Assembly (NCBI GenBank): GCA_038884755.1
Contig: JAWABJ010000001.1
Coordinates: forward strand, 192,001 to 256,000
Direction of reading: 5' to 3'
DNA length: 64,000 bases
Origin: Candidatus Norongarragalinales archaeon
GTDB taxonomy: Archaea > Micrarchaeota > Micrarchaeia > Norongarragalinales > Norongarragalinaceae
Shown: one piece after another, positions 18,493 to 55,844 of the stretch
Numbering within the stretch: the first letter of the stretch is position 1
How the letters are laid out: every line of letters starts with the position of its first letter
The notes under the pieces: generated by a model
Seen by the model: the letters and a program-made list of their open reading frames with translations, nothing else
Database searches by the model: none
Told to the model about the DNA's origin: nothing
Program-made: the position numbers and the translations under genes

Positions 18493-18549
18493 AAACTTTC
18501 TTTTTCGCAAAAAGAAAGTTTGATCAAAGAAAAACGACGCAAAGAAAAA
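18493..18549. repeat. tRNA-associated TTTCTTT/AAAGAAA palindrome with extra purine tracts (copy 1)
   Basis: AAACTTTCTTTTT-CGC-AAAAAGAAAGTTT (18493-18521) abuts the tRNA-Arg 5' end; AAAGAAAAA again at 18526 and 18541. Confidence 0.8.
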
Positions 18550-18617
18550 CCAAAGGGAATTCCAGCCTATAAGAAACATGGCGGTTGGTTTTTATTTGCT
18601 TTTTGAATTCTGTATTC

Positions 18618-20681
18618 ATGCTAGCCGCCGAAGCCACGCAAATCCCGATAGTAGAAATAGGCGTGATAGTCTTGGCGGCGCTGTTTTTCGGGATAATCGC
18701 CTCGCGATTGCGCCTTCCCACTTCCATAGGCTACATAATTGCAGGCTTTCTCCTCGGCCCCCAAGTTTTTCATTTCCTGACGCCGAACGAGGGTATCGCG
18801 CAGCTGTTCGGCGAAATAGGCCTTTTGCTCTTGCTTTTCTATCTGGGTTTGGAATTGAGCATAAAGAAATTCAAGGAAAGCGGCGCCTTGGCGTCCATAA
18901 TAGCTTTCGTTGAAATGGGAATACCATTTTTGTTCTCTTTCCTCGTTGCACTCGCGTTCGGCTTTGGCTTTACCGAAGCGCTGGTCATAGGCGCGATGCT
19001 CACTGCGACAAGCACGGTCATGGTAACGAAATTCATGTTCGACCGGCGCATAGAAAAGGAGCCTGAATCGAGGCTGGGGATTTCCATTCTCGTCGTCGAA
19101 GACTTTTTCGCCATTCTCGTTTTGGCTTTCCTGTTCAGCATTTCCAACGCCGTTTCGTTCAAGCAAACGCTCTTGAATGGCGTTCTTTTCGTTGTCGCGA
19201 TGTTTTTCGTCGTAAGCCGCGTCACGCGCTTCGTATCGAGCTTTTTCGAGCGGCACGGGAAGACGAGCGTAATGACGCTCTTCGCCTTGGGCGTGGGCAT
19301 AATGGTCGCCTACTTCAGCTCTTACCTCGGGCTTACCATAGCGTTGGGCGCCTACTTCGCGGGTTTTGCGCTGACCGAAACGCCTTTCGGCGAGAGGGTG
19401 AAAAAGGAAATTGGCTTCATGCGCGAGTTTTTCATACTCTTCTTTTTCGTTGGCTTTGGAACTACGGTAACCACACCTTCTTCCGGCTCGCTCGTCCTAG
19501 TCTTCGCTCTAGTGGCTTTCTACATCCTCGCTAAAATCATCGCCTACGGGTTTTTCGCGACGGCGTTCGGCTTGGGCATGAACTCGGCAATAAAGCTCGG
19601 CATGATGATGATTCCCATAGGCGAGTTCAGTCTGATAATCGCGGCGGCTTCCGCGCCTTTCATGCGCAATGCCGGCGAAATAATCTCTATAGCGTTCCTC
19701 CTCACTATAGTTTCCACGCTGATTTCTCCCGTGCTTTTCGACAATTCCAAGCGCATAGCTGAATTAGTGTCGTCGTTGTACCCGAAAAAACTGCGCAAGT
19801 CGATAAACGCCTTGGGAAAGGAACTGCATTCGCTGGAAAAAGTTTCGCAAAACCCCGCGTTCCAAAACGAATTATCGCGGGCTTTGGAAAGCTTCGTTTT
19901 GAATTCGGTAGTGGCGTTGGCGATAGTCTACATGAGCTTCCTCGCTTCTTTCAACGTCGACCTGAGCTTCATTCCTTTCCTCCCTCCGGAAATTTCCATC
20001 AACGTCTTGATACTGCCTTTAGTTTTCTGGCCAATATACAAGGCAATCAATGACTTGAAGTTCATCGCTTACTCCGCAGTCTCGCAGTGGTCACGCCAGC
20101 ACTTTCCGTACTGGAAGAGGCACCACGACGCGGGTATTGCCGCGTCGGAAATAATCACTTCTTTCGTCCTTACACTGGCGGGTGTTTTCGCGTGCTTTCT
20201 CTTCTACTTTACTAGCACCGAGCTCTTGCTTGTCCCCCTTCTTTTCACGCTGCTCGCGCTCATGTACTTGAGCAAGAGCATTTACTCGCTGTTCGAACAG
20301 GCGGAAGATTTACAGGCGGTTGCCGAAAGCGGCGGCGTTTCGGGAAAGGAAGTGCTTTCCTTGAGCAGGGAACTGCGGATGCGCGCTCAGAAAATCGCCG
20401 AGTTGAACGAAGAGCGCGAAAAATCCTTGAGGGAAATCCGCGCGGCGCTGGGCGCGGGGAAAATGGCGAAAGCGCGCTCGGAAATGCAGCACTTCAAAAA
20501 GCGCGAGGCGGCAATCCTGGCAAAACTCGAAGGCGCGGAAAAACGATTGGAAAAGAAAGAATTCGCCGCGCTTTCGCGCGAGGAGACTGCCACGAAAAAA
20601 GCGCTGGAAAGTTATTTCCTTAAGCAAGCCCCGCGCATCCTAGGCGAAAAGCGCAAGTCTTCGAAAAAGCCCAAGCGTTGA
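18618..20681 (+). CDS. CPA2 (Kef-type) cation:proton antiporter with C-terminal membrane and coiled-coil extension
   Basis: GYIIAGFLLGP, GLLLLLFYLGLE, TATSTVMV, ILVVEDF, PIGEFSLII. Confidence 0.9.
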   Translation: MLAAEATQIPIVEIGVIVLAALFFGIIASRLRLPTSIGYIIAGFLLGPQVFHFLTPNEGIAQLFGEIGLLLLLFYLGLELSIKKFKESGALASIIAFVEMGIPFLFSFLVALAFGFGFTEALVIGAMLTATSTVMVTKFMFDRRIEKEPESRLGISILVVEDFFAILVLAFLFSISNAVSFKQTLLNGVLFVVAMFFVVSRVTRFVSSFFERHGKTSVMTLFALGVGIMVAYFSSYLGLTIALGAYFAGFALTETPFGERVKKEIGFMREFFILFFFVGFGTTVTTPSSGSLVLVFALVAFYILAKIIAYGFFATAFGLGMNSAIKLGMMMIPIGEFSLIIAAASAPFMRNAGEIISIAFLLTIVSTLISPVLFDNSKRIAELVSSLYPKKLRKSINALGKELHSLEKVSQNPAFQNELSRALESFVLNSVVALAIVYMSFLASFNVDLSFIPFLPPEISINVLILPLVFWPIYKAINDLKFIAYSAVSQWSRQHFPYWKRHHDAGIAASEIITSFVLTLAGVFACFLFYFTSTELLLVPLLFTLLALMYLSKSIYSLFEQAEDLQAVAESGGVSGKEVLSLSRELRMRAQKIAELNEEREKSLREIRAALGAGKMAKARSEMQHFKKREAAILAKLEGAEKRLEKKEFAALSREETATKKALESYFLKQAPRILGEKRKSSKKPKR

Positions 20682-20712
20682 ACTAATAAACTCCAGTGAA
20701 CAAAATTTTGTT

Positions 20713-20769
20713 TAGTGATGATAACTGAACAACCTCTGAACCGATGATGAGGCTGATAGCGTCTGATCC
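20713..20769 (+). ncRNA. C/D box guide sRNA (dual guide)
   Basis: C GTGATGA 20715-21; guide 20722-35; D' CTGA 20736-39; C' ATGATGA 20744-50; guide 20751-62; D CTGA 20763-66; TAATAAA at 20684-90. Confidence 0.88.
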
Positions 20770-20842
20770 AGGAGAAACTACGTTTCTCCCTGGAACCCTC
20801 TTCCTGCGACGAAATTAATACTCCCGACTTCATTCTTTTTTC

Positions 20843-21535
20843 ATGCCGGATTTTGACCAACAGGAAATTTGGGAGAAAGAGCATTCCAAACCCTTAGTCT
20901 TGCCTCAGATGAGTAAAGAAGATGCTTCTGGGGGTGTTGTCGAATTCTACTCATGGCTTGCAAGAAATAGTCTTACAAGCGAATTGTCTGGAGTAGAAAT
21001 GGGGTGTGGAAAGGGAAGAAACTGCTTGTGGTTGGCAAAACAAGGAGTCAAAATGACTGGTTTCGACTTTTCGAAAAATGCAATTTCAGAAGCTCGAAAA
21101 AAAGCTGGAAAAACGGGCTTACAGAATGCGTTTTTTTTAGTTCACGATGCCACCAAAAAATGGCCTTTCGATAACGAGGCTTTCGACATTGGTATAGACT
21201 GCTTTGCATCAACCGACATAGATTCTCTTGAAGGAAGAACCTTCGCGAGGGATGAATTCAAGCGAGTAATCAAGAAAAGCGGCTTTCTGCTCGTGTATAC
21301 ACTCTCGACTGACGACGAATTTCACAAGCAAATGGTTGAAGAATATCCTGCAGGAGAAAGGAACAGTTTCAGGCATCCGCAAACCGGAAAATTCGAGAAA
21401 ATATTCGACAGAAACGAGATTTTTGATTTTTACCGAAATTTCAAACTAATCGAAGAGTGCAGGATAGAGAAGGATGAGGTCTTTTTTGGAAAAAGCTATC
21501 GATGCAAGCATTTTTGGCTGGTATTTCAAAAGTAG
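20843..21535 (+). CDS. Class I SAM-dependent methyltransferase
   Basis: VEMGCGKGRN, GFDFSKNAI; visibly more AT-rich than its neighbours. Confidence 0.88.
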   Translation: MPDFDQQEIWEKEHSKPLVLPQMSKEDASGGVVEFYSWLARNSLTSELSGVEMGCGKGRNCLWLAKQGVKMTGFDFSKNAISEARKKAGKTGLQNAFFLVHDATKKWPFDNEAFDIGIDCFASTDIDSLEGRTFARDEFKRVIKKSGFLLVYTLSTDDEFHKQMVEEYPAGERNSFRHPQTGKFEKIFDRNEIFDFYRNFKLIEECRIEKDEVFFGKSYRCKHFWLVFQK

Positions 21536-21549
21536 GTCTTTGTGGTTAA

Positions 21550-21831
21550 ATGCACTACCGGATTTTGGTTGAAGGCAGGGTGCAGGGCGTCGGGTATAGG
21601 GCTTTCGTGAAAAGCGCCGCCTGCGCGCTGGGAGTAAAAGGTTTTGTTCGTAATTTGGAAGACGGGCGGGTGGAAATAAACTGCGAGTGCGGCGAGAGCG
21701 TTTTGAAAGATTTTTTGAAGAAACTCGAGCGCAAGAGCGAAGGCTTCGCCGGAATTCACGTTGAGCGGCTGGCTGTGGAAAAAACCGCTTCCCCTCGAGA
21801 AGGCTTTTCTTCGTTCGAAATACGGTTTTGA
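21550..21831 (+). CDS. acyP: Acylphosphatase
   Basis: [21 protein letters not shown]. Confidence 0.96.
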
Positions 21832-21910
21832 GTCTTTTTTTGCGCAAGAACTGGTTTTTATACCTCGGCAATTACGTTTATCTTAACGGTTTTTCCACGG
21901 AGGGGATTCG

Positions 21911-24900
21911 GTGCAGGAACGCGCGTTTTTCGCCTTGTTTTCGATTATGATTTTGAGCGGGCTTGTTTTCGCCGCCTCTTCCACGCCAATCCCCGAAAAA
22001 AAGCTTTTCGAAACCAACGACATGCTGTCAGTCCAGTTTCCGCAAAGCGCCTCGTACGAAATCAAGGACGGGAACAAGCTTTACTTCAACGAGCCGGTAA
22101 AAGAAGTTTACCTGCATTATTTCTCGGGCGGAAGCGAAACGAGGCAGACGCTTTACAAGGTCGGGCGCATTGATGTTTGGCCGAAATTCGAAATGCTGGT
22201 TTTCGACAACACTTCGCAGTCGACGATGGTCGTTTTGAAAGACAAGCGCACGACTGTGCAGACGGCCGTGCGCTTCAGGGCGGTTTTCTACGAAACTTCC
22301 GTTTCTTCTGCAGCACCAGCGCAGGACTCTCCGGTCACAACCCCTTCCGCAGTCTGTCCTTTCGTTTACGGGTTTAAGAAAGACGGGGCAATAGCCGGCT
22401 TCAGGCTCAGCGACAACGGAACCGCTAAAGACCTGAAGACCGTGGTTTTCGGTGAAACGGATGCGGTCGATTACACCCTCCTGTGGCCTTCGGGCGAAAG
22501 CACGGTGAAGAAATTCAACGTAAAGAGAATAGAACTCTTGACTGCCACGCAAGGCAACGCGAAGAAGGAAGTTTCCGACACCAAAACCTCGTACTCGTTC
22601 GCTTCGCCCGTTATTATCCTGGTCACTCCCGAGAACGGGAAACAATTCGTGGCTGCAGTAAAGAAAATGACTTTCTCGTCCAAATCGAGCGTGGAAAAGG
22701 CGTTCCAGTTCGGCGCTCCTGACGTGGGCAACGTCAAGACCGAATACACTACCGGCGCTTTGGCAGTCCAATCGCGCGAAAAGCCGTTTTCGTTCAATTT
22801 GGTTGAAGACCAGCGGGTTTCTTCCTTCGACTGGGACCCTTCGAGCGCCTCGTGCTATCCAGTTTTCGTCGAGGGCGCGGAAAAGCCAGTTTGGGTGAGG
22901 GACTTGAGTTGGGAGAGCGCGCCTTCGTACGCCGGTTCGAGAGCCGGGAACGCGCAAGGCTGCGCCGCGCAGTTGGGAAGGTGCATTACCGAAACGACCG
23001 CCAACCTTTACAAGCTTAAGTTTTCTTCCGAAACTAAAGTCACGCTGGTTTCGTGCAACGTGCTTCAAGACAATCCCGTTGCGAAAGCCAAACTCGGCGA
23101 AGTTGAATTCGATTTGGTCGCGCTGTTCGACAAGAAGCCCGAGTTCGTTTTCGACGGGGCTAAGTTCGAATTCAAGTATTCGTTCAGGCAAGGCAACGCG
23201 AAAGACTTCGGAATCAACAACGGCGTTTGGCACGTGGTTTACGACCCTGCTGCCTTCGATTACTACCACTCTTTGAACAAGAACGGCGGCGTGCCTTCTG
23301 CAGTGCCGCGCCACGAGGACGAGGCTTACGCGCCTCAAAACCACTACTGCCCTAGCGCCGGCGTGAATTCCTACACCCTAATGAACAGCGGGGATTATCT
23401 CGCCAGAATGTGGATTGCCGGCACGCAAGGCGATTTGGTTTTGAGCGAGAGCCTCGTGCGCTTGGTCCACTCCCCCTCCACCTTCGGCCAGTTCCTGCTC
23501 GCACACCGCTCTTCCGACGTTGTGCAGGAAAACTTCCAATTCCGCACGAACTACGTTGAAGCGCGGAACGCGCCGAAAGCGCTTTTGTTCAACAATCTTT
23601 TATACTCGGTTTTTTCCTTGTCTCCAGCAACCTCCAGCTCTGCCGCCGGTTTCCTTGCAAGCGTAAAGGATGCTGCAACCAACAACGCGGTTTTAGACGT
23701 CGTGAATCCGGGCGCGTTCGGAAGCGTAGGAAAAATTTCTTTGAGGAACGTTTTCTACACCGGATACAAGATTTCCTTGAAATCAAAAGACGACAAGTTT
23801 GAAGGGGTTGCTTTTACCATTCTCCAGCCAAAGTCTGCCGGAGCTCCAGGCGCCGATTGCGAATCTTCATTCTTCAACCCGTCGGCTCAGTCGAGCAAAA
23901 AGTGTTTTGACGCCGCGCCGTTCTGCTGGGGGTATTTGAGCGGCAGCGGAACTCCCTTCGGAAACTATCGCTGTTACCCTGTTTCCGCAGGCAACGGCTA
24001 TCCTGCCGCGGACGCTTACGCATGCAAGGGAACGGTTTATTCCGACCTGAACGCGCAGACGCGAGAGCACGGGACCGTGTATTTGAAGTACGCCGAAGGC
24101 AAAGGGCATTGCTCCAACAACCAGCGGGCTGAAGAGTTGATTAAAGACGGCAGTTGCAAGAAAACGCCTTTGGAAAACATTTCTTACGTCGTAACCAAAG
24201 ACGGCAAGGAAATGACTTACAAAGTGAAAGTGCTGGACTGCTCTGCAAGGTATTCCGACGCGAACGCTGGCGGAGCCGGCGGTAGGGACAGGCCGCCTGC
24301 GGCCGGAACCGGAAGGGCGTCCATTCCCGCACTCGAATCTTCAGGCGGCCTTTCGGTGAAAACCCCCGCCCAGAAGGTGAAAGAATGCCGCAGCCAAGGC
24401 GCGGGCTTCGACTGCAGGAACGTGAACGCTTGCGACCCTGCCTCGATAAAACGCGGCTTGTGTCCGGGCGGTGACGACAACGTGTGCTGCAAGGCAAAAG
24501 GACAGGATTCCGAAAAGTGCGAAACCCTTCCTGTTTCCGAGTGCAAGAAACAACCTTCGTGCGAAGTGAAAAGCTCCGGAGGCGTAGATTCTTGCGTCCC
24601 GAAGGCGTCTTCCTCGGAAACTTGCGAAACCCTTTCACCCTCCGAATGCCGCAAGAATTCGAAGTGCGTGGTAATACCGACGACAACCTACGGCAACGCT
24701 TGCATTTCGAAATCAAACGCACCGTCGTGCTCTTCGATAGGCGTTTCGCGATGTAGCTCGTACGAATACTGCGAGGTTATAGACACTACCTACGGCAAAG
24801 CGTGCGTCGAAAAATCGGCTGCAACGCCGAAGCCTCCAAAAACCTGGAACCTGCCTGACGGCAAAACCTGTTCCGACATTCTCAAGCAACAGGATTGCGT

Positions 24901-25462
24901 GAAGTACTACCAGTGCGATTGGACTAGAGACCAGTACGGCGTTTGGTCTTGCGACGTGAAAGCCGGAAACGCCCGCGACTCGTGCGAGGCCGTGGGAGGC
25001 TGGAGCTGCAACGCCGCCTCTGCCTGCGTGCCTTCGACCGCTGACAAGCGCGGGGCGGGAACGTGCCCGTACGGGACAGTGTGCTGCCAGCCGCTCAAAT
25101 CCCTGCCTTCAGGCGAAACCTGCTACTCCATAAGCCCGTCGCTTTGCTTGCAGTACCGCTCTTGCGAACTGATAGACGCGTCTTTCTACGGCAAAGCATG
25201 CGTGCCCAAAACCGCACCGAAAGGCTCTTTGTTCCTACCCGCAAGCAAAAGCTGCTCTTCCATAAGTGAAACCGATTGCCTGAAGTACGTGGAATGCACT
25301 TTGCAGTACAAGTTCGGCACATCCATTTGCGTGACTAAAACTGGCTACTGGAAACTGCCTGCTGGAAAAACCTGCAGCAGCATAAGCAATTCGGAGTGCA
25401 ATTACTACAGCAAGTGCAAGCTTGCAAGCACGGTAGGCGGGACTTTCTGCCAGGAAAAGTGA
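21911..25462 (+). CDS. Large secreted protein (1183 aa) with C-terminal Cys-rich repeats
   Basis: Signal peptide; seven 4-Cys repeats and two 6-Cys modules ending in CC; no C-terminal TM. Confidence 0.8.
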   Translation: MQERAFFALFSIMILSGLVFAASSTPIPEKKLFETNDMLSVQFPQSASYEIKDGNKLYFNEPVKEVYLHYFSGGSETRQTLYKVGRIDVWPKFEMLVFDNTSQSTMVVLKDKRTTVQTAVRFRAVFYETSVSSAAPAQDSPVTTPSAVCPFVYGFKKDGAIAGFRLSDNGTAKDLKTVVFGETDAVDYTLLWPSGESTVKKFNVKRIELLTATQGNAKKEVSDTKTSYSFASPVIILVTPENGKQFVAAVKKMTFSSKSSVEKAFQFGAPDVGNVKTEYTTGALAVQSREKPFSFNLVEDQRVSSFDWDPSSASCYPVFVEGAEKPVWVRDLSWESAPSYAGSRAGNAQGCAAQLGRCITETTANLYKLKFSSETKVTLVSCNVLQDNPVAKAKLGEVEFDLVALFDKKPEFVFDGAKFEFKYSFRQGNAKDFGINNGVWHVVYDPAAFDYYHSLNKNGGVPSAVPRHEDEAYAPQNHYCPSAGVNSYTLMNSGDYLARMWIAGTQGDLVLSESLVRLVHSPSTFGQFLLAHRSSDVVQENFQFRTNYVEARNAPKALLFNNLLYSVFSLSPATSSSAAGFLASVKDAATNNAVLDVVNPGAFGSVGKISLRNVFYTGYKISLKSKDDKFEGVAFTILQPKSAGAPGADCESSFFNPSAQSSKKCFDAAPFCWGYLSGSGTPFGNYRCYPVSAGNGYPAADAYACKGTVYSDLNAQTREHGTVYLKYAEGKGHCSNNQRAEELIKDGSCKKTPLENISYVVTKDGKEMTYKVKVLDCSARYSDANAGGAGGRDRPPAAGTGRASIPALESSGGLSVKTPAQKVKECRSQGAGFDCRNVNACDPASIKRGLCPGGDDNVCCKAKGQDSEKCETLPVSECKKQPSCEVKSSGGVDSCVPKASSSETCETLSPSECRKNSKCVVIPTTTYGNACISKSNAPSCSSIGVSRCSSYEYCEVIDTTYGKACVEKSAATPKPPKTWNLPDGKTCSDILKQQDCVKYYQCDWTRDQYGVWSCDVKAGNARDSCEAVGGWSCNAASACVPSTADKRGAGTCPYGTVCCQPLKSLPSGETCYSISPSLCLQYRSCELIDASFYGKACVPKTAPKGSLFLPASKSCSSISETDCLKYVECTLQYKFGTSICVTKTGYWKLPAGKTCSSISNSECNYYSKCKLASTVGGTFCQEK

Positions 25463-25468
25463 GTTGCA

Positions 25469-26085: not shown

Positions 26086-26212
26086 GGCGCAGATGGTGTA
26101 GTGGTTAGCATCGGGGCTTGTGGTGGACTTCTTTCTTTTGGAAAAGAAAGACCTCCACTAGAAAGAAAACCGCAATCAGCCCTTGACCCGAGTTCGAATC
26201 TCGGTCTGCGCC
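26086..26212 (+). tRNA. tRNA-His(GTG) with encoded G-1 and a 54-nt intron at 37/38 (26124-26177)
   Basis: GCGCAGA/TCTGCGC acceptor stem; GGGGC-TT-GTG-G|intron|A-GCCCT; BHB central helix TTGT/GCAA with 3-nt bulges. Confidence 0.92.
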
Positions 26213-26291
26213 CTTTGCAAGCCCCGGGGAAAAGCGTTTCCCCTGGCGCTCGCTGCGCCTCGCCCCTTTTTTTTTTCAAAAGTGTTTTTAA

Positions 26292-34603: not shown

Positions 34604-34635
34604 GAAAAAATTAGTGCGGTTCGTTTTTATGATAG

Positions 34636-34762
34636 TAGCCCCGGGCGGATTCGAACCGCCGTCAACGGGTATCTTTTCGCAAAGCGGAGTTGCTCGCCCC
34701 GAAAGGCTCGCTTATCCGTGCGTGCCAAAGCCCGCTATACTGGGCCGCTATACGACGGGGCT
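34636..34762 (-). tRNA. tRNA-Gln(TTG) with a 54-nt intron at 37/38 (34671-34724)
   Basis: AGCCCCG/CGGGGCT acceptor stem; GCGGG-CT-TTG-G|intron|A-CCCGT; BHB central helix CTTT/AAAG. Confidence 0.92.
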
Positions 34763-45203: not shown

Positions 45204-45212
45204 GCTTTTCGT

Positions 45213-48200
45213 TCACTCTTCTTGCTTGTTTCTCAAGAAGAAAGCCGCGAGTGCTATTAAGACTAACGCTCCGCCTGCGCCCAGCAGCAGGGCGTTGTAG
45301 TTTTCCTTCCCCCTGTTTTTTTCCGTAGAGTCGAAGATGGAGTTAAGCCTTTTCGCGGCAAACCACGCGGTGAACGCTTTTCCGTTTTCTTCGTCTTCCT
45401 TTGCTTGGTTCAGCGCCGAGAGGGTTTCGTCGGTTCCGAACTGCCTTTGCTTGAGTTCGGCGTTGGAAACCTCTTCCCGCGCTTTTTGTTTTTGTTGTGC
45501 GGTTGCTTCCTCCAAAACCTCGAGTTTCGCTTGCACTCGTTCGGCCAAGGCTTGCAGGCGGGACTGTGTTTCGGCTTTTTCCACGGCTTTCAAGAGCTTT
45601 TCGATTTCCGACTTCGCCTTCTTGCCTTCCTGATGCAAGACGTTTTTCTGGAGTTCTTTCGCGTTTTCCTCGCTTGGGGAAAACGCGGTTTCGAACTCGC
45701 TGAATGCAGAAAGCGCCTTGTCCCGCAAAACGCCGAATTCTTCGAACTCTTCACTCAGCCTCCGCCTCTCCTCGTTTTTTTCTGAGGCGGCTATTGCCGC
45801 TTTTTCCAGCTCTTCAGCCGCTTTCTGCAAGTCCCCAAGCAAAAGGAATTTTTTCGCTTGCTCAACGCACTCTCTGCAGCTTTTCTCCAGCCTCTCGATT
45901 TCAGCGCCGATTCTTTCCTCTTCTCCGACGTCAATGTTTTTTTGCAGCGCGCTTTCTTCCAGGCTTCGAAAGCCGGGTTGCGGGGCAATGCAGCCAAGCA
46001 CGACCACGGTTTTTTTCGTTTCGAAAAGCCCGAGTTTTTCCCCGGTTATTTCAACTGCAAGAATCCCGTCCAAGACTTTTACTTTTGCTTTCAGGCTGCC
46101 GGAAACCGAAACCCCGCCGTCGCATGCTTCGAAAGCGATTTCCTCGTTGAAATTTTCCAAGGCAACGTGCTTGCTTTCGACCGAGATTTCGATTTCGGTC
46201 AAGTTGCCGGCGAGTCTGAAGTTTTCCTCGATTCGGACGGGGTGTGGAACGGCGTATTCAATTTCAAGCGCGTTTTCCCCTTTTTTCGCTTGCGCGAGAA
46301 TCCTTATTTGCGATAAATTCCCGTTCGTGAAAAAAACCGCGTTTGCGCCGCTTGCGCGCGCGAATTCGATTGGAAACTGTTTTTCCAAAACCAATAGCGT
46401 TTCGGTGTCGCGAGTAGCAGTGAAGAGGATTTTTTCCTCGACAAGCGCTTCGAGCGAATTGGAGTGCACTGTTTTCGCCTGCGTTTTTGCTATTTCCACG
46501 ATTTTTTCCAGGGTTTCGTACTCCAGGAAGTATTCCGCGTTTTCCTCCGTTTTTTCCAGGAAAACGTTTTTTGCAATTGACATTTCCGGGCTTTTCCGCA
46601 GGACGACCGCCCCGCCGGGGATTTCAAAGTCAAGCTTGATTTGCCTTTCGGTTGACAGCGGCAATAGGTTTTTCATGGTTATTGAATGGCGGACCCGCGT
46701 TTTCTCCCCTGCTACGGGCAGTTCGGCGTCACGCCCTACCTTCGCTTGCTCTTGCAAGTGTTTCTTGAGGATTTCGGGAGTTTTCGCTTCCGCGAGCGAA
46801 AGCAGGTCGTATAACCGGAATTCAATTCCCGCGAGCCTTCCGGCGGCTTTCTCGAAGTCGATTTTCCCGAAGGGAAACATGCTTTTGATTTCCAAAAGCC
46901 TCGAGTGCGCGCCTTCGCCCAAGTGCGGGGCGATTGAAGAAATTTTTTCGTAATTCCCGTCGATTGCGGAATAGCGTTCGTAGAGTTTCGCCAAAACCTT
47001 TTCCTTCAGCCCGTCTAATTGCGCTTCCAAAAAAATTCCTTGTTCTCCGCCGGCGTTTTCCATGGAGAGCTCGATTTCCTTGAGTTTTTCCCCTTCGGCT
47101 TCGAACACGGCGTCCTTCTTTGCGCGCGAAACGAGTTCCTTAAGCTCTTCCAGCTTGGTTTGGAGGGTAAATTTGAACGCCTGGCTTGCGGGGGTTTCGG
47201 AAAGGATTTCCTGCGCCTTCTTGAGTTGGGTTATTGCGGAAACGTAGTACAAAATCCTTTCCCCTCGGGTGGAAATGCGCTGGGAGTCAAGGGTTTCGTG
47301 CAAAAGCTCACGGGCTTTTGCGGCTGAAAACGAATTCGCCCGTTCCATCATGCTTTCGGCAAGCGTTTTTTCCTGCAGGACTTTTTGCTTCAGCGTTTTT
47401 TCAAGGCTTTCGCTCCTTTCCGCCGCGTTTTCGAAGAGCCTCTGCTCTTCCTTCAGGCGCGTGTTGGCTTCGGCGAGCTTTTCTATCGCCCTGCTGGCGT
47501 AGCCTTCCTGCTTTCCGTTCCAGTCCGCCCGCGCCTGCTGGCTTTTTTCTGTCGCCATCCTGTCGCTCTCTACCGCCTTCTCGAAATCGCTTTCGAAAGA
47601 CTCGAGTGAGTTTTCGCTGCTCACGCTTTCCGCTTCCCCTACGAGGTGAAAGGCGTTTTCCCCTATTTCCCTGATTTTCTCTCCTTCCAGAAAATCCCGC
47701 TGCAGCTTTACCTTGATTTTCAGAAGCTGGTTTTCCTCGTCGAGCCTCTGGTATTCCCTTTCAAGAAGGAAAACCGCTTGCAAAACCCTGTCGTCCAAAG
47801 CGATTTCCTTTCCCCACAGCCCTTCCCTTCCCACGAGCGCTTCAACTCCCTTCACCATTTCCCCCGAAGAAAGTGTTTGGTTGACGAGTGGGATGGTTTT
47901 GGAAAACTCGCTTCCGAACCCTTTGCCTAGGGGATTCCGTTCTTCAATGTTTTTCTTCGCTTCGCCCAGTTCCGAGACGACTCCGCCTGCAAAACCTTGG
48001 AAGCCCGGGCCTATCATGAGCTCGAGTTTTGCAGCGTCGGAGTCTATGATGCTGAGGCCTTCCCGAGCGGCTTCGCTCGCTTCCCTCAACGCCTTTTGCC
48101 CGTAAAGAAAACAGTAAGTGGAATGGTGTCGGTATGCCGCGAGCGTGGCTTTGTTCAAGAATTTCGGCTGCAGCGCCGCGTGCGCTTTTGCCTTTTGCAA

Positions 48201-48425
48201 GTCGCGCGAAGCTTGCGCCGCTTTGGCAAAGGCGAAGTCGCTGCGCGCGTTTTCCGCCAACGCCGTTTTCGCGGCCAGAAAGCCGGCGCAGCTTTTTGGG
48301 TAGAGCGAGTAGTAAGAGAAGGAAAGGTTTTTCGGCTCTAGGAGAAAGCCGTATTCGGAAAGCGCCCAAGCGGGGAGCGCGTTGAGCAGGATAAGCAGCG
48401 AAGCAACGGCGAGCTTTCGAAGCAC
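45213..48425 (-). CDS. 1070-aa membrane-anchored surface protein (coiled coil, beta-rich region, coiled coil, TM)
   Basis: Signal peptide, long E/K/A/L-rich helices, C-terminal TM LLLGAGGALVLIALAAFFL. Confidence 0.75.
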   Translation of the reverse strand: MLRKLAVASLLILLNALPAWALSEYGFLLEPKNLSFSYYSLYPKSCAGFLAAKTALAENARSDFAFAKAAQASRDLQKAKAHAALQPKFLNKATLAAYRHHSTYCFLYGQKALREASEAAREGLSIIDSDAAKLELMIGPGFQGFAGGVVSELGEAKKNIEERNPLGKGFGSEFSKTIPLVNQTLSSGEMVKGVEALVGREGLWGKEIALDDRVLQAVFLLEREYQRLDEENQLLKIKVKLQRDFLEGEKIREIGENAFHLVGEAESVSSENSLESFESDFEKAVESDRMATEKSQQARADWNGKQEGYASRAIEKLAEANTRLKEEQRLFENAAERSESLEKTLKQKVLQEKTLAESMMERANSFSAAKARELLHETLDSQRISTRGERILYYVSAITQLKKAQEILSETPASQAFKFTLQTKLEELKELVSRAKKDAVFEAEGEKLKEIELSMENAGGEQGIFLEAQLDGLKEKVLAKLYERYSAIDGNYEKISSIAPHLGEGAHSRLLEIKSMFPFGKIDFEKAAGRLAGIEFRLYDLLSLAEAKTPEILKKHLQEQAKVGRDAELPVAGEKTRVRHSITMKNLLPLSTERQIKLDFEIPGGAVVLRKSPEMSIAKNVFLEKTEENAEYFLEYETLEKIVEIAKTQAKTVHSNSLEALVEEKILFTATRDTETLLVLEKQFPIEFARASGANAVFFTNGNLSQIRILAQAKKGENALEIEYAVPHPVRIEENFRLAGNLTEIEISVESKHVALENFNEEIAFEACDGGVSVSGSLKAKVKVLDGILAVEITGEKLGLFETKKTVVVLGCIAPQPGFRSLEESALQKNIDVGEEERIGAEIERLEKSCRECVEQAKKFLLLGDLQKAAEELEKAAIAASEKNEERRRLSEEFEEFGVLRDKALSAFSEFETAFSPSEENAKELQKNVLHQEGKKAKSEIEKLLKAVEKAETQSRLQALAERVQAKLEVLEEATAQQKQKAREEVSNAELKQRQFGTDETLSALNQAKEDEENGKAFTAWFAAKRLNSIFDSTEKNRGKENYNALLLGAGGALVLIALAAFFLRNKQEE

Positions 48426-49847: not shown

Positions 49848-49853
49848 GCCGAA

Positions 49854-50012
49854 TTACCTTACGGCGATTTTGAGGATTATTTCCAAGAGTATTATCGCGA
49901 TTGAAAAACCGAGGACTACTTTCGCGTCGAGCCTTATTTTCGAGGAGGAAACGTCGTAAAAGCGCATTATTCCCGCGCTTGAAGTCGGAGCTTGAATCTT
50001 GTCGTCGGCCAT
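49854..50012 (-). CDS. secG: Preprotein translocase subunit Sec61beta
   Basis: PTSSAGIMRFYD...KIRLDAK followed by one TM. Confidence 0.92.
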   Translation of the reverse strand: MADDKIQAPTSSAGIMRFYDVSSSKIRLDAKVVLGFSIAIILLEIILKIAVR

Positions 50013-50099
50013 GTGCGTTTCTCCCCTGCCGCGAAGGCTGGAATTCCGAGCGCCCACGCAAGCCAAATGATTTAAACCAACCGCAATTTAAATTTACTC

Positions 50100-51047: not shown

Positions 51048-51141
51048 CGCCGAAAAAAAAGCGTTTTTAGTATAAACTGCGTCAGGGTGAAAAAAACCTT
51101 TATAAACTTCCCTTGACAGAGAAATGTAGGTGATGTTTTAA

Positions 51142-51969: not shown

Positions 51970-52038
51970 GTTTTTCAAAAGCCTTTTTTTTCTCTTTTTT
52001 TCCGAATTTATTTAAAGCGGGGCTTCGCTATTTTCTCC

Positions 52039-52752
52039 ATGCCTGTAGTTTGGAAGGAAAGACACATTCTAACACCCAAAGGCTGGGCTCGCGTGGTGCA
52101 CTTGCAAGGCCACGATCCGGAAGAGATTTTCAAGCTCGTTCAAACGAGGGGAGACCGGCTTTCCGGCCATCCTCCCGTGACCTTGTACCGGCATGGAACA
52201 ACAAGCTTGGTTTTTAGGCCTCGAACCGAGGATTTCAACCCTTCTAAACAATTCAAGGTCTTGCAGCGCATGGTGGAAAAAAGGCAAGCGAGCGTGGAAA
52301 TGCCTTTCGCCTTGGTGGAACATCCTGACCACTATGGGCTTCTTTCTTACGCGAAAAAAGGCGTGTCGAAACGCTCGATGCTCGCCAACGTGATTAACGA
52401 TAATGCCTTGTCTATGCAAGAACGATGGAGCATGGCTAAAGCCGGAATGCGGCGGCTTGCCGAAATTCATGCTGTAGGCTTCAACCACGGTCATCCTTAC
52501 GGAAACCTCATGGTTGACGCAAACAACCGCGTCAAGTTTATAGACTCAAGTCTCGTGAGTGAATTTGATTCAACCTTGGCTGAAGGGGAACTTGAGGGTT
52601 TGGCGTCCGCGCTTACGGAGCGCTTGTGGGTTGCAAGGCCTTGGGAAGAGAGAATAAAATTAAACCATAAAGTGGAAATGTTTCGAATACAAAAGAGGCT
52701 GCTTGAAGAGTACAACCGAACTTTAGAAAAACGGTCGAAGAAAAAACTTTGA
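52039..52752 (+). CDS. Protein-kinase-like (Bud32/RIO/Kdo-type) protein, probable pseudokinase
   Basis: LAEIHAVGFNHGHPYGNLMV...VKFIDSS. Confidence 0.65.
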   Translation: MPVVWKERHILTPKGWARVVHLQGHDPEEIFKLVQTRGDRLSGHPPVTLYRHGTTSLVFRPRTEDFNPSKQFKVLQRMVEKRQASVEMPFALVEHPDHYGLLSYAKKGVSKRSMLANVINDNALSMQERWSMAKAGMRRLAEIHAVGFNHGHPYGNLMVDANNRVKFIDSSLVSEFDSTLAEGELEGLASALTERLWVARPWEERIKLNHKVEMFRIQKRLLEEYNRTLEKRSKKKL

Positions 52753-53234
52753 ACGCAGGTGGGCTTTTGATTGCAGGCGTGGATTCGGGAACTTGGCGGG
52801 CTTTTGCCGTGCTTGATTTTGACGGAAACGTGGTTGCGATGGAAAGCCGAAAGAACTGGACTCCCGACGAGTTCATCGCCTCGCTTTCGGCTTTTCCCCC
52901 TGCGGTTATAGCGTGCGACAAGATTCCTGTTCCCAAAAACATCAGGCTTTTGAAAAGCGTTTTTTCCGCGCGGTTGTTCAAGCCGCACAAGAGTCTTACG
53001 GGAGTGCAGAAGACGTTCTTGACGCGCGACTACCGCATTGCGAATGAGCACGAGCGGGATGCGCTTGCCGCCGCGTTGAAAGCGTTCCGATCTCTCAAAA
53101 ACAAGTTTGAATTGGTAGACAAGAAGGCTGGGAATGCGGGCATCCCGCTTTCTCGAAGGGCTTTGCTCAAGAGGCTGGTTTTAAAGGGAGAAACTGTCGA
53201 AAAGGCTTTGAGGCTTGTTAAAGCAACTGGTTGA
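52749..53234 (+). CDS. DUF460 N-terminal (RNase H-like) domain protein
   Basis: IAGVDSGT..AFAVLDFDG, VIACDKIPVP, NEHERDALAAALKA. Confidence 0.8.
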   Translation: MNAGGLLIAGVDSGTWRAFAVLDFDGNVVAMESRKNWTPDEFIASLSAFPPAVIACDKIPVPKNIRLLKSVFSARLFKPHKSLTGVQKTFLTRDYRIANEHERDALAAALKAFRSLKNKFELVDKKAGNAGIPLSRRALLKRLVLKGETVEKALRLVKATG

Positions 53235-53791
53235 AAATCGTGATTAATCCGTTCAGGCGTTTGAAGGAACTGGTGGACGCGCGCAAGCCCGTCTCTCGCG
53301 AAGCAGTGCGCGCTTTGATGAGGGCGGAGTGGGCCCGCGCTGCGCAAGACGGGAGCTTGCTGTTCGACAGGGTTGACGGCGCTTCTGCCATTTCAAAAAC
53401 CCCAAAAGATTTTATTTCCGCGTTGCGCTCCGGGTTCCAGGAAGCGTCGCGCTTGCAAAGGCAGTAGGTTCGCGCGGCTTTGTTCCACCACGGGAACAGG
53501 ATTGCGACTGAAAAAACGTTGTCTTACTACAAAATTGCCGGGAACAAAGCCGAGAGTTTGAGGCAGTTGACCGCCAGATTCGCGCAGAAAACCGAAAGCA
53601 TGCTGGACTTCGAGGGTACGAATTTGGATTATTACGTTGTCGAGCTTTACTCCGAGACTTTGAAGCACTTGGGCGAGCGGAACGCGAAAAAATTCATGCA
53701 GTTTTACTCCAAACGCTTTGGAGAGTTTCTGCTTGTTTTGAAACAGCTTGAAGAGGAAGACGAGGAAAGGCACGATAGGGCAATGCCCTAG
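53231..53791 (+). pseudogene. Hypothetical gene interrupted by one in-frame TAG (53465-53467), or two small genes
   Basis: ORFs 53231-53467 and 53480-53791 are in the same frame, separated by TAG and four sense codons. Confidence 0.4.
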
Positions 53792-53886
53792 CAAATGGCT
53801 TAAAAACCGCTTTTTCCTGTTTGTTAAAGCCGGGCTTTTGCCCGAACGAACAACACGGCAAGGACTTTCAGAGGTGGGGATTTAGC

Positions 53887-54204
53887 ATGGAAGAATCAGG
53901 ACAGCCGCCAGAAATGATGCCTTCGGGCGAAAGGCGCAGCGACGACACGATTTACATCGGCAAGAAAGACGTGATGAGCTACGTGCTTGCCGTCGTAACG
54001 CAGTTCAACCAAGGTGCTGGGCACGTCAAGCTCAAAGCGCGCGGGAACATGATTTCTCGCGCCGTTGACGTCAGCCAGATCGTGAAAAACCGCTTTCTGC
54101 AAGGGTTGCGCATTACGAACTTCGACGTTGCGACCGAGGAATTGCAGAGCGAAGACGGCTCGATGCGCAAGGTTTCTTCCTTGACGCTCACGCTGGAAAA
54201 GTAA
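53887..54204 (+). CDS. albA: DNA/RNA-binding protein Alba
   Basis: IYIGKKDVMSYVLAV, KARGNMISRAVDV, RKVSSLTLTL. Confidence 0.96.
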   Translation: MEESGQPPEMMPSGERRSDDTIYIGKKDVMSYVLAVVTQFNQGAGHVKLKARGNMISRAVDVSQIVKNRFLQGLRITNFDVATEELQSEDGSMRKVSSLTLTLEK

Positions 54205-54255
54205 GGCGGCGTGAATCCGATTTCTTTTTATTTTCACGCAATCCTAGTGTTAATG

Positions 54256-54312
54256 TTTTCTTTTAGGAAGCAAGTTTCTTTGGTTAAAAACTTTCTTTCC
54301 TAAAGAAATTTT
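54256..54312. repeat. tRNA-associated TTTCTTT/TTTCTTT/AAAGAAA element upstream of tRNA-Val
   Basis: TTTCTTT 54275-81; AAAACTTTCTTT-CCT-AAAGAAATTTT 54287-54312. Confidence 0.7.
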
Positions 54313-54314
54313 AA

Positions 54315-54387
54315 GGGCTCGTAGTCGAATGGCTAAGACGATCGCTTGACGTGCGATAGATTCGGGGTTCGATTCCCTGCGAGCCCA
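54315..54387 (+). tRNA. tRNA-Val(GAC), no intron
   Basis: GGGCTCG/CGAGCCC acceptor stem; ATCGC-TT-GAC-GT-GCGAT; CGGGG-TTCGATT-CCCTG. Confidence 0.95.
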
Positions 54388-54585
54388 CTTCTGGTTTGTT
54401 CTACAAACTCATGCTACCTTCGATTTCTCTGCTCAACTTCTTTTTTCGCAACCATGCATTCCAACCAGTAAATGGATTTTTGTTTCGCTCGTTTTCCCGT
54501 TCACTTTTATGCTCCTCGCAAAGCCAACGTCCCCTTTCTGCTTTCTTCTTACAGATAATACCACTTGGAATACACTCACCTTAGC

Positions 54586-54744
54586 CTACTCTTCTTCCGC
54601 AAACTTCTTTATCTCTTCGAAGTTTTCCACAATCAGTTTCGCCTTGTTCTTGCCGAAGCTGAACGGAAAACGACCTTCCTGATCGCCGTCCCTCTTCAAA
54701 ATAATCAATTTGTTTCCCTTATACTCGCCGAACTCGACTGTCAT
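54586..54744 (-). CDS. 52-aa small protein, possibly PC4-like ssDNA-binding fold
   Basis: MTVEFGEYKGNKLIILKRDGDQEGRFPFSFGKNKAKLIVENFEEIKKFAEEE; GGGGGT RBS. Confidence 0.7.
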   Translation of the reverse strand: MTVEFGEYKGNKLIILKRDGDQEGRFPFSFGKNKAKLIVENFEEIKKFAEEE

Positions 54745-54769
54745 TTTACAAAACCCCCCTTAGTAGTTT

Positions 54770-55057
54770 TCACTTCAAGGAAGGCGGAATTATTTCCGGC
54801 CTCTCCTTCGTCAACAGAAAATAGTAAGACGAAAACTTCAGCCTGTACTCGACGGCGAGCTTAATCCACTTGAACAACGTTTGCTGGCGCTTGCCCGTGA
54901 AAATGATGTATAAAAGTTGAATCACCCAGCAGATTGCTCCTATCAGGCTCAAAATCCAAAGCACTATGACGAGCGGAATCCAGTATACCAAGCGTACGAG
55001 CAATTCTTTCCTGCTGGCTTTAGCGTCGTATTTGACGTCGAAATTCAAAGTCTTCAT
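54770..55057 (-). CDS. DUF4389 family small membrane protein
   Basis: SRKELLVRL..WIP, hydrophobic hairpin, IIFTGKR, Y..LLTKERP. Confidence 0.8.
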   Translation of the reverse strand: MKTLNFDVKYDAKASRKELLVRLVYWIPLVIVLWILSLIGAICWVIQLLYIIFTGKRQQTLFKWIKLAVEYRLKFSSYYFLLTKERPEIIPPSLK

Positions 55058-55105
55058 TTTCTCCCCACCTTTCCCTTTTTTCTAACCATTTTTACCCGCG
55101 CGGGC

Positions 55106-55549
55106 TTAAAGAGTTTTTTGCTTGCCTCTAATTTTCTCCGCCAGGGAGTCCAAGTCTTTTTGCGAAGGCTCCTTCCGCAATTCCGTTTCCCTCACGCCGA
55201 CGTGCTTGAACAAATTATCCCAGCTCTTTCGCGGCAGCAAATGGAAATGTACGTGCTGCTTGGAAAGCTTGGTTTCGGGAACGAAAGGCCTGTAATGCTG
55301 GCGCAAGTCCACCCCGTCGCACGGCAAGTTTTTCAAAAGCATTTTTTCTATCGCTACGACCAGGTCGAAAATCGAGTGCAGTTCATCCTTGTTGAAATCC
55401 CACAACGCCTTGTGGTGGGCTTTGGGGATTACCAGCGTATGCCCTTCGACTATCGGAAAAGCGTCGAGAATCGCCATCGCATGCTTGTTTTCCCCGAGCT
55501 TTGCGCTGTGCGCTTTTCCTTCAACGATAGTGCAGAAAACACAGTCCAT
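55106..55549 (-). CDS. HIT family hydrolase
   Basis: DCVFC, GHTLVIPKAH, HVHFHLLPR. Confidence 0.93.
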   Translation of the reverse strand: MDCVFCTIVEGKAHSAKLGENKHAMAILDAFPIVEGHTLVIPKAHHKALWDFNKDELHSIFDLVVAIEKMLLKNLPCDGVDLRQHYRPFVPETKLSKQHVHFHLLPRKSWDNLFKHVGVRETELRKEPSQKDLDSLAEKIRGKQKTL

Positions 55550-55577
55550 CAAAACGCCTTTTTTCTTTAACTTAATT

Positions 55578-55626
55578 TTTCTTTCTTTCGTTAACGTTTC
55601 TTTCTTTTTCGCAAAAAAGAAAGAAA
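55578..55626. repeat. tRNA-associated TTTCTTT/TTTCTTT/AAAGAAA element at the tRNA-Ala 3' flank
   Basis: TTTCTTTCTTT 55578-88; TTTCTTTCTTTTT-CGCA-AAAAAGAAAGAAA 55597-55626. Confidence 0.8.
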
Positions 55627-55632
55627 GGTTAG

Positions 55633-55844
55633 TGGACTCGGCGGGATTTTCAGCCTTGCCTTTCTTTTACCAAAAGAAAGGCGGTGGCGCCGCCAAAGAA
55701 AACGATTTACTTTCTTTTTCATGCGCCGGTTTAAGCTTTTGAACCCGCAGCCTCATGCACGAGGGGAATCTTTCTTTACTGAATTTTTCTTTCGCAAAGA
55801 AAAATTCTTGCCATGCATGCGATCTGCCGTTGATCTACGAGCCC
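55633..55844 (-). tRNA. tRNA-Ala(GGC) with two introns: 49 nt at 37/38 (55760-55808) and 91 nt at 59/60 (55647-55737)
   Basis: Spliced form GGGCTCG TA GATC..GATC G CATGC-AT-GGC-A|T-GCATG AGGCT GCGGG-TTCAAA|T-CCCGC CGAGTCC A; both junctions form BHB motifs (one T.C mismatch in the first). Confidence 0.88.

Follow-up and report, generated by a model that had tools for sequence, protein, structure and literature searches.

The window, a 64,000-nt stretch of a Candidatus Norongarragalinales genome (G000), holds five tRNA loci. As the first-pass annotation had reported, four of them, Arg(CCT), His(GTG), Val(GAC) and Ala(GGC), carry a repeat of three TTTCTTT- or AAAGAAA-like tracts, which reads as T-tract, T-tract, A-tract (Y-Y-R) on one strand and as Y-R-R on the other. 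The intronless tRNA-Arg gene (18416..18492, minus strand) is flanked at its 5′ end by copy 1 (18493..18534, plus strand), with a 14-bp hairpin at 18492-18522 and the third tract at 18526-18534, reading Y-R-R on the plus strand and Y-Y-R in the transcript. The tRNA-His gene (26086..26213, plus) contains a 54-nt intron at position 37/38 (26124..26177, plus) enclosing copy 2 (26130..26169, plus; transcript Y-R-R), which shares 93% identity over 46 nt with a copy in a tRNA-Leu intron at C1:432031. Copy 3 (54275..54312, minus; transcript Y-Y-R) lies in the 5′ flank of the intronless tRNA-Val gene (54315..54388, plus). Three copies accompany the tRNA-Ala gene (55633..55844, minus), which has two introns. 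Copy 4, in the 3′ flank (55559..55626, minus; transcript Y-R-R), comprises a hairpin at 55597-55626, a third tract at 55576-55588 and an extra tandem tract at 55559-55568, a feature also seen at C1:567961. Copy 5 (55658..55702, plus; transcript Y-Y-R) lies at the 3′ end of the 91-nt T-loop intron (55647..55737, minus); at ~55710-55730 the intron retains the tail of a second copy, in inverted orientation, that has lost its hairpin. Copy 6 (55771..55807, minus; transcript Y-R-R) sits in the 49-nt anticodon-loop intron (55760..55808, minus) and shares its subfamily with copies found in other parts of the genome, in 16S, 23S and tRNA-Gly and after stop codons. The fifth locus, tRNA-Gln(TTG) (34635..34762, minus), has an intron without the repeat. 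Default ARAGORN and Rfam detected two of these five tRNA genes, tRNA-Ala being missed by both; a practical effect of the inserts is thus that they conceal tRNA genes from standard annotation tools.

All six copies previously recorded were recovered in place. A pattern search of the whole window gave seven matches, all at these six sites (dinucleotide shuffles, 0/100), which bears out the earlier impression that the window holds no others. Folding z-scores of the hairpins ranged from -1.7 (the Val copy, the weakest) to -4.4. The word common to the His and Ala introns and the three CGC loops were present as described, the loop comparison mixing the two strands of the element; the common word is nearly palindromic and therefore carries little information.

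Presence, absence and copying of the repeat

Comparison of orthologous loci supported both copying between loci and presence/absence among relatives, as expected of the mobile element suggested in the first-pass annotation. The tRNA-Val 5′ flank site is filled in G001 and G002, with stems that have changed yet still pair, and empty in G006, G015 and G017, while the tRNA-Ala 3′ flank holds other subfamilies in G001 and G002. The tRNA-His intron is absent from G009, G013, G015 and G021, and in G007 this site holds a short, repeat-free intron. The tRNA-Ala T-loop intron is absent from G001 and G002; the anticodon-loop intron is present in G001, G002 and G004 and absent from G006, G008, G009, G015, G016 and G017. 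Filled and empty alleles were both found within the genus and within the family. Near-identical copies sit in unrelated RNA genes of the genome, and identical linkers occurred in 4.9% of within-genome pairs versus 0.7% of between-genome pairs. Some copies have lost the third tract (the G001 Ala intron and G023 RNase P).

Association with BHB introns

Four introns consist of the repeat plus at most ~10 bases and form bulge-helix-bulge (BHB) motifs. In all, six introns showed a BHB motif, with two 3-nt bulges at the exon-intron junctions and a 4-bp central helix that was complete (4/4) in the His, Ala T-loop, 16S and both 23S introns and had 3/4 pairs in the Ala anticodon-loop intron. The Ala T-loop intron adds four outer pairs, and the 12-pair outer helix of the anticodon-loop intron is made by the first and third tracts. 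The BHB-constrained fold lay 0-8.5 kcal/mol above the free minimum (five cases). Removal of the introns gives the ancestral RNA sequence, as judged from empty alleles for the His, Ala and both 23S sites; G004, of the same genus, has exact empty 23S alleles that match both predicted 23S junctions. The 64-nt 23S intron is skipped in an RNA contig of a G002-like organism, which carries 15 alleles of the intron-bearing G002, against 6/15 in the intronless G004. This contig stems from a different sample and does not agree with G002 everywhere, so that an intronless strain is possible. A second RNA contig, also from another sample, ends at a predicted 5′ splice site; both observations come from assembled contigs. 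The maximum word share among the RNA sequencing runs was 0.19, run X22 yielded no usable coverage, and low-likeness joints, mostly from other organisms, were left out. G000 encodes a 403-aa two-unit EndA. The proposal that the element seeds or expands BHB introns is thus supported, and the introns are probably spliced.

Closure of the BHB by the third tract was also considered as a general rule. Pairing of the first with the third tract was dominant in 7/18 short introns, 2/5 long introns and 2/10 flank copies, and in an in-register test of 37 intron copies 366/5000 shuffles reached the observed value. The rule was rejected on this non-significant result, and holds for some introns only.

Distribution in the genome and beyond

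Across G000, 41 sites with stems of 7-13 were found (0 in three local shuffles), all A/T-rich. By hand annotation, 33 are at tRNA genes, 3 in 16S/23S rRNA, 1 in RNase P RNA and 4 elsewhere. Confinement to tRNA genes, as first proposed, therefore describes the window but not the genome, where 33/41 sites are at tRNA genes and others are in rRNA, in RNase P RNA and after stop codons; in bacteria there are hundreds of intergenic copies, with up to 242 matches of the same motif in one genome. A check of enrichment at RNA genes placed 37/41 sites in tRNA, rRNA and RNase P genes, which make up 20% of non-coding plus RNA-gene space; HMM-called tRNAs had given only 19/41, because fragmented genes were missed, and the test was repeated with 44 hand-placed genes. 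The element matches no curated Rfam family model, RF02421 overlapping one arm and flank at 3/20 bacterial loci, and the host RNA at C1:116664 matched neither SRP nor any Rfam family. Several introns consist of inverted pairs of two different subtypes, and bacterial copies are located at the ends of long inverted repeats. Blocking of viral integration, another suggested role, leaves the flank, rRNA and RNase P copies unexplained.

The copies are polar, the hairpin end lying a median of 6 nt from the exon and the tail end 30 nt. Of six apparent exceptions, four of which were read, two are real (G008, G047) and two follow duplicated tRNA fragments, another is a nested duplicate and the last points to the gene that comes next. 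This polarity, the concentration at tRNA, rRNA and RNase P genes, and the retention of the Val 5′ flank and Ala 3′ flank sites in three congeners, with compensatory or replaced sequence, would suit a DNA structure maintained by the host at strongly transcribed genes. Negative supercoiling driven by transcription, or an R-loop, could cause such an inverted and mirror repeat to extrude, and it could then serve as a buffer or polar polymerase block, its copies being homogenised by gene conversion. We consider this unlikely, given the patchy occurrence (109/401 genomes of the phylum, and only 1/94 and 1/83 in two large families), the empty alleles within the genus, the 19/44 tRNA genes of G000 without a strict site, and the report that PIT elements showed neither promoter nor terminator activity and left replication in vivo unaffected (PMC4666352, citing ref. 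41).

Mirror covariation and the folding strand

Conservation of the third tract was checked on TTTCTTT/AAAGAAA hairpins fetched without requiring it, and a mirror tract was found at 41/42. Among 250 copies from 54 genomes, mostly fetched by the three-tract pattern and including non-independent kin, the inner runs were equal in mirror register in 187 copies (mean of within-genome shuffles 111, observed value reached in 0/5000) and the outer runs in 175 (mean 107, 0/5000). Direct-repeat alternatives accounted for 60 (inner) and 54 (outer) of 250, at or below shuffle level, and in the 133 informative single-C copies mirror exceeded direct repeat by 95 to 10 and 86 to 12. This covariation indicates selection on the three-tract arrangement and supports the triplex geometry of the first-pass annotation, the fold being that which the tracts would be predicted to adopt. 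It is natural covariation evidence for a selected intrastrand triplex, which work in E. coli could not show in vivo.

The triplex might instead be irrelevant in the cell, A/T hairpins near exons growing by slippage and the third tract being a duplicated arm kept solely as an alternative partner for closing the BHB. The tandem extra tracts (55559-55568; C1:567961), the losses of the third tract in the G001 Ala intron and G023 RNase P, and the closure of the BHB by first and third tracts in four introns are in line with this idea. However, a duplicated arm should give direct-repeat covariation, and this does not rise above chance, whereas mirror covariation is far above it. The three-tract design is also shared by bacteria, for which BHB splicing is not known. 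The idea is therefore largely refuted, and we assign it scarcely any likelihood.

The stem is often extended. In a cross-domain scan, an extension of at least 4 bp bridged by at most 2 nt was present in 54/117 distinct copies, 35 of these 54 having 5 bp and 1 nt; extension pairing was 3.2 versus 1.6 in shuffles, 0/2000 of which reached the observed value. The end base of the central strand is a purine in 120/124 copies for the Y-Y-R fold and in 94/124 for the Y-R-R fold. Judged by this linker geometry, folding is likelier on the Y-Y-R (pyrimidine-motif) strand, as initially supposed. Of the 32 linkers that follow a shorter third-strand run, 16 have T as the next base, which suits a purine-motif fold of the other strand. 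In the 113 of 250 copies with a tRNA assignment (137 have none), the Y-Y-R strand is antisense in 93 and equals the transcript in 20. Crude ORF calls gave a Y-R-R transcript for 29/42 bacterial copies. Since Y-Y-R is mostly antisense, DNA is the likelier carrier.

These orientations bear on a function in RNA, either as a U.A-U/C+.G-C triple helix of the ENE/MALAT1 type, which would shield 3′ ends once RNase P has cut or keep introns stable after excision, or as a U-tract terminator countering read-through and antisense transcription. In a pseudoknot, a loop of 1-2 nt spans 5 bp over the A-form deep groove, and the linkers of the element match this geometry. All seven assigned 5′-flank copies with a tRNA-adjacent hairpin place Y-Y-R directly before the tRNA. 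In addition, pyrimidine-motif triple helices are common in folded RNA, according to the accessible part of PMC7583470. Against this stand the Y-R-R transcripts of most tRNA-assigned copies and of most bacterial ones, and the report that purine-motif triplexes do not form in RNA (PMC4666352), a point on which the same part of PMC7583470 gives evidence both ways. Stabilisation of excised introns, proposed earlier, fails as a general role with so few Y-Y-R transcripts. A terminator placed within an intron would do harm, and termination does not depend on mirror symmetry; an ordinary terminator was ruled out by the copies inside introns together with that symmetry. We regard a role as an RNA element as distinctly improbable.

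Search for a mobilising enzyme

An HUH (IS200/RAYT) or other dedicated enzyme might move the element in trans, as for REP or MITE repeats; introns built of inverted pairs of different subtypes, bacterial copies ending long inverted repeats, and copy numbers of up to 242 matches per genome would be compatible with such movement. Neither Y1_Tnp nor RVT_1 was found in G000 (93% complete). Within the order, Y1_Tnp was rarer with the element (4/31 element-positive versus 9/17 element-negative genomes, the 13/61 genomes lacking an element count being left out); it was not found in the two bacterial genomes with the highest copy numbers, and the element lay near 0/17 Y1 loci. The suggested HUH/IS200 partner was accordingly rejected, draft-genome absence being weak evidence and the search covering Y1_Tnp and RVT_1, and so was a reverse transcriptase partner, with no RVT_1 in G000. 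Mobilisation in trans appears very unlikely.

Proposed explanation

On balance, we modestly favour a non-coding intrastrand-triplex repeat that acts as DNA, is copied without an enzyme of its own, persists in discarded parts of stable RNAs and aids BHB introns. It would be a 35-50 nt element of the PIT/BoxC kind, with a T-tract, short linker, T-tract, loop and A-tract on one strand. When single-stranded, it would form the hairpin, and the first T-tract would lie parallel in the major groove as T.A-T triads with isolated C+.G-C. DNA is the most likely level of action, and copying between loci would probably proceed by polymerase stalling with template switching or by gene conversion. In this compact Micrarchaeota genome, copies would persist mainly in leaders, trailers and BHB introns of stable-RNA precursors, the introns presumably being cut by an epsilon2-like splicing endonuclease. 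The transcript is usually Y-R-R, and its first and third tracts could pair and close the BHB outer helix, so that an insertion in an RNA loop could be spliceable almost at once; this is seen in four introns of this genome and is no general rule across relatives. A bolder version, which we hold possible but doubtful, is a transposase-free mobile repeat of bacteria and archaea whose spread depends on a pyrimidine-motif triplex and which, in archaea whose splicing endonuclease is relaxed, creates BHB introns outright, the splicing motif being closed by pairing of the first and third tracts in the transcript. If true, introns of tRNA and rRNA genes, and perhaps one in RNase P RNA, would derive directly from the repeat.

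The arrival of archaeal tRNA introns is called open in the accessible part of a 2026 preprint (10.64898/2026.10.13.758758), which examined copying, mobile elements and reverse transcription as sources in Asgard archaea, none of them proving to be a general route. Since the repeat makes up nearly the whole of four introns, relatives carry exact empty alleles and copies also exist outside introns, the arrival route is directly testable here. Repeats with a sequence signature of three-stranded DNA are thus a testable lead on the origin of archaeal RNA introns.

Comparison with known systems

REP, REPIN and BIME repeats with RAYT transposases are short hairpin repeats that form inverted pairs and spread extragenically. 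The element resembles them in these respects but has a third mirror tract, and neither a GTAG/CGTC-type foot nor a link to a Y1 transposase was found. The 5′-flank copies ending just before a tRNA parallel the MALAT1-mascRNA layout. The U-rich, U-rich, A-rich order with isolated C+.G-C recalls the ENE/MALAT1 and telomerase U.A-U helices (PMC7583470, accessible part), although only 20/113 copies, including the 5′-flank minority, have this order in the transcript.

Archaeal BHB introns of tRNA and rRNA genes, including those transposed in Thermoproteales, likewise have the BHB at 37/38 and in the T-loop, with related intron sequences across different tRNA genes (10.64898/2026.10.13.758758, accessible part), and a relaxed-specificity epsilon2 endonuclease occurs in the host lineage (PMC3239211, PMC12397907). 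The element differs in also lying outside introns, in flanks and after stop codons, in both orientations, and in its triplex signature; the words triplex and hairpin are absent from that preprint. The main text of PMC4666352 does not mention tRNA, and a search of the open-access literature found no paper that links triplex repeats to archaeal tRNA or to DPANN.

Repeats of the intrastrand-triplex kind are already known, among them PIT, BoxC and TM_ECO (Holder et al. 2015, PMC4666352; Hoyne et al. 2000, as cited there), so that the claim of an undescribed system does not stand in its strong sense. TM_ECO formed a triplex in oligonucleotides, but this was observed neither in duplex DNA nor when footprinting was done in vivo (PMC4666352, section 20). 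As in the class II/IV definition of Holder et al. 2015, the element has three tracts on one strand and a stem within 6-15. Its purine-tract linker, when counted in full, measures mostly 6-14 nt, since some of its bases pair in the stem extension; this exceeds the ITxF limit of 1-6 nt for both loops, and many copies would therefore be missed by an ITxF search. TM_ECO and BoxC are G/C-rich with a 3-nt second loop (PMC4666352, section 16), whereas the element is A/T-rich with isolated C, a contrast resting on the main text of that paper, whose supplement may list A/T-rich examples. TM_ECO is described as a purine-motif triplex, while the linker geometry of the element points to the pyrimidine-motif strand, and many copies have a stem extension with a 1-3 nt bridge. 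TM_ECO and BoxC are always intergenic; many copies of the element lie inside tRNA, rRNA and RNase P genes. In other respects the two agree. Both are non-coding, and one strand carries a hairpin and a third tract in mirror arrangement, which is class II and corresponds to the pyrimidine-motif class when the complementary strand is read. In both, the loops vary, inverted pairs combine two different subtypes, relatives differ very unevenly in copy number, and a transposase link is absent. The element is an A/T-rich variant of the bacterial PIT/BoxC triplex repeats.

Distribution of the repeat in the window and genome

The repeat, a TTTCTTT hairpin accompanied by a third tract, was proposed in the first-pass annotation to be present at six sites and confined to tRNA genes. 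The three-tract pattern gave seven matches at those six sites, none elsewhere in the window, and none in 100 shuffles of the window. Within the window, confinement to tRNA genes holds; four of the five tRNA loci carried the element and the fifth, tRNA-Gln, was without it. The window corresponds to C1:192001-256000 of a 927-kb genome; it carries archaeal genes, and its IF-5A has Micrarchaeota as named close relatives. In the whole genome (G000), a hairpin-only pattern search located 42 distinct sites, while a sequence-blind triplex scan returned 41 class II sites, the same set minus one, and none in three local shuffles of the genome. When the 41 sites were assigned to genes by hand, 33 were found at tRNA genes, three in 16S/23S rRNA, one in RNase P RNA, two in small-RNA-like stretches without assigned identity, and two directly 3' of stop codons within operons. 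A repeat was present at 25 of the 44 hand-placed tRNA genes. Known stable-RNA genes occupy 20% of the non-coding plus RNA-gene space, yet contain 37 of the 41 sites (binomial p = 6e-22), indicating that the element is concentrated at stable-RNA genes rather than confined to tRNA. Outside the 41 sites, C-less variants with pure T/A tracts retained the three-tract layout (G000 C1:685085-685109 and C1:173544-173702; the Ala 3' flank of a relative, G008, in stretch L008).

Mirror symmetry of the third tract

In a triplex, the third tract should mirror the purine arm of the hairpin, whereas a duplicated arm should give a direct repeat. The comparison of the two models drew on 54 genomes and 250 copies, of which a few, being nested, entered twice; tract presence was fixed by the search pattern and run lengths were free. 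Among these copies, which include kin and are not independent, mirror equality held for the inner A-runs of 187 and the outer runs of 175; the corresponding within-genome shuffle means were 111 and 107, and 0 of 5000 shuffles reached either count. Direct-repeat matches in the same copies numbered 60 (inner) and 54 (outer), at or below chance. The two models differ in 133 of the 172 single-C copies, where mirror outnumbered direct matches by 95 to 10 and 86 to 12. This covariation argues for the proposed triplex geometry.

Probable folding strand and carrier

The strand reading pyrimidine-pyrimidine-purine (Y-Y-R), suggested earlier as the folding strand, is favoured by linker geometry, end-base identity and tract composition. 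The stem was extended by at least 4 bp and bridged by at most 2 nt in 54 of 117 distinct cross-domain copies, and 35 of the 117 had a 5 bp + 1 nt extension with compensatory changes. Across the major groove, the partner strand's 5' end, about 5 bp away, is close, but the 3' end of the purine strand itself is distant. A linker this short would therefore fit a parallel fold, unlike an antiparallel one. For the Y-Y-R fold, the central strand ended on a purine in 120 of the 124 linker types; for the other fold the figure was 94. A T-rich tract interrupted by lone C residues is well suited to the pyrimidine motif (PMC7583470). As counter-evidence, 16 of 32 linkers had a T ahead of a shortened third run. 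Overall, Y-Y-R is probably the folding strand.

The transcript was Y-R-R in 93 and Y-Y-R in 20 of the 113 copies (of 250) tied to a tRNA exon. The median distance to the exon was 6 nt from the hairpin end (n = 71) and 30 nt from the tail end (n = 60). With two real exceptions, 3'-flank copies were Y-R-R (10) and 5'-flank copies Y-Y-R (7), and bacterial copies 3' of an upstream gene were Y-R-R in 29 of 42 cases by crude ORF calls. In most copies, then, the strand that would fold is the template strand, which makes DNA a likelier carrier than RNA.

Repeat-containing introns

BHB (bulge-helix-bulge) motifs were formed by the three repeat-bearing introns in the window (one in tRNA-His, two in tRNA-Ala), the 16S insert and two 23S inserts. 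For His, the predicted junctions are at window 26123/26124 and 26177/26178. Four of these introns, at His (54 nt), the Ala anticodon (49 nt), 16S (51 nt) and one of the 23S sites (47 nt), contained little besides the repeat, with roughly ten additional bases at most, and in them the BHB outer helix ran on as the first tract paired with the third. As a general rule this pairing failed an in-register test; it dominated in 7 of 18 short introns versus 2 of 10 flank copies and 0 of 42 bacterial copies.

Comparison of orthologous loci, as proposed in the first-pass annotation, revealed empty alleles for His (in four family members), for Ala and for both 23S sites (in the same-genus G004), all agreeing with the predicted junctions. 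An RNA contig joined positions 13518 and 13453 of L071, a stretch holding the G000 rRNA operon, leaving out the predicted 64 nt; it had 15 alleles in common with the intron-bearing relative G002, 6 of these also with the intronless G004. A second RNA contig broke off where the 5' splice site of the other 23S intron is predicted. Both are known only as contigs, come from another sample and do not fully match G002; they hint at splicing of the 23S inserts in the cell and do not prove it. G000 encodes, at C1:634320, an endonuclease of 403 aa that contains two PF01974 units. In this it resembles the epsilon2 enzyme, which acts on both strict and relaxed motifs (PMC3239211, PMC12397907).

The most far-reaching reading, which is less likely than not, is that insertion of the repeat directly generates introns that can be spliced. 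The G002 23S intron had identical ends and a core drawn from another subfamily, and the His locus of G007, another relative, had a short intron without the repeat; both point to the repeat also expanding or replacing sequence inside older introns.

Separately, a tRNA at G000:C1:13053-13218 (minus strand) had two introns and was by eye Ile with a UAU anticodon, miscalled Lys by ARAGORN. Related polypurine/polypyrimidine hairpins made up a second family of inserts, located in the T-loop introns of tRNA-Arg and tRNA-Gly (G000 C1:657000-657090, C2:66560-66630, C1:300830-300885 and C1:181925-181975).

Other RNA loci

The RNase P RNA of G000 (C1:670514-670828, equal to L071 1015-1329, minus strand) contained a full repeat copy where, among 8 of 30 loci listed, G003 and G004 have a short variable hairpin. 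By eye the insert can be drawn as a relaxed BHB-like fold, and it could therefore be an intron. The rRNA operon (L071 11000-18100) carried two group I intron matches, more long inserts of protein-coding appearance, and three inserts built of the repeat.

Within G000:C1:173300-174000 (L073) lie a single copy of the repeat and two of its C-less variants, together with a word resembling a C box and a guide-like segment that partly complements the 16S 3' region; the stretch is possibly a C/D box sRNA, and no Rfam match was obtained. Another repeat copy lies in a structured, non-coding segment at G000:C1:116490-116700 (L072), which was assigned no identity and was negative in an SRP search; its purine/pyrimidine tracts resembled those in T-loop introns. 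At 26219-26280 in the window, 3' of tRNA-His, a G/C-rich hairpin plus T-run gave a class I match in the triplex scan and held the word CGCTCGCTGCGC, similar to words beside bacterial copies. Window ORFs at 4975-7620, 21911-25462 and 45213-48425 (881, 1183 and 1070 aa) had no NCBIfam match.

Mobility

The His copy and a copy in a tRNA-Leu intron shared 93% identity across 46 nt, and one subfamily recurred in 16S, 23S, several tRNAs and 3' of stop codons. Identical linkers were seven times commoner within genomes (123 of 2501 pairs) than between them (172 of 25229), and the Ala 3' flank of three congeners held three subfamilies. In three relatives (L009 of G014, L118 of G021, L121 of G009), repeat or hairpin copies adjoined duplicated tRNA-end fragments, which suggests local duplication there. 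Neither a Y1 transposase nor a reverse transcriptase was found in G000, and the HUH transposase domain Y1_Tnp did not track the element, so its copying route can only be inferred. The triplex geometry and Y-Y-R strand of the initial interpretation were retained, and the tRNA confinement and HUH (IS200/RAYT-like) partner were abandoned.

Spread and comparison with known repeats

Of 41 relatives, 30 had the pattern (23 of the 24 family members among them), as did 109 of 401 genomes phylum-wide, two large families being almost without it (1 of 94 and 1 of 83 genomes). In the genome collection, a stricter pattern matched at least 124 stretches. Among the 80 listed with names were other DPANN groups, ANME-1, DHVE2 and many bacteria. 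Fifteen viral contigs also matched the pattern. The cross-domain matches are true copies, with paired stems; two bacterial genomes had 242 and 139 matches, and a reversed-pattern control had 0. In Burkholderia and Stenotrophomonas (L411, L412, L418), the motif lay at the ends of long (400-650 nt) inverted repeats, and RF02421 overlapped its flank; this sRNA family may therefore be part of a repeat.

A search of open-access papers found no publication on the element. The available portion of a 2026 Asgard preprint leaves open how introns arrive and does not mention triplexes (10.64898/2026.10.13.758758). The element works like the bacterial intrastrand-triplex repeats PIT, BoxC and TM_ECO as described in PMC4666352, and like them it also forms inverted pairs of two subtypes. 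Compared with TM_ECO as described there, the element is A/T-rich, has a longer linker, favours the other strand and is lodged in RNA genes, so it is not TM_ECO itself.
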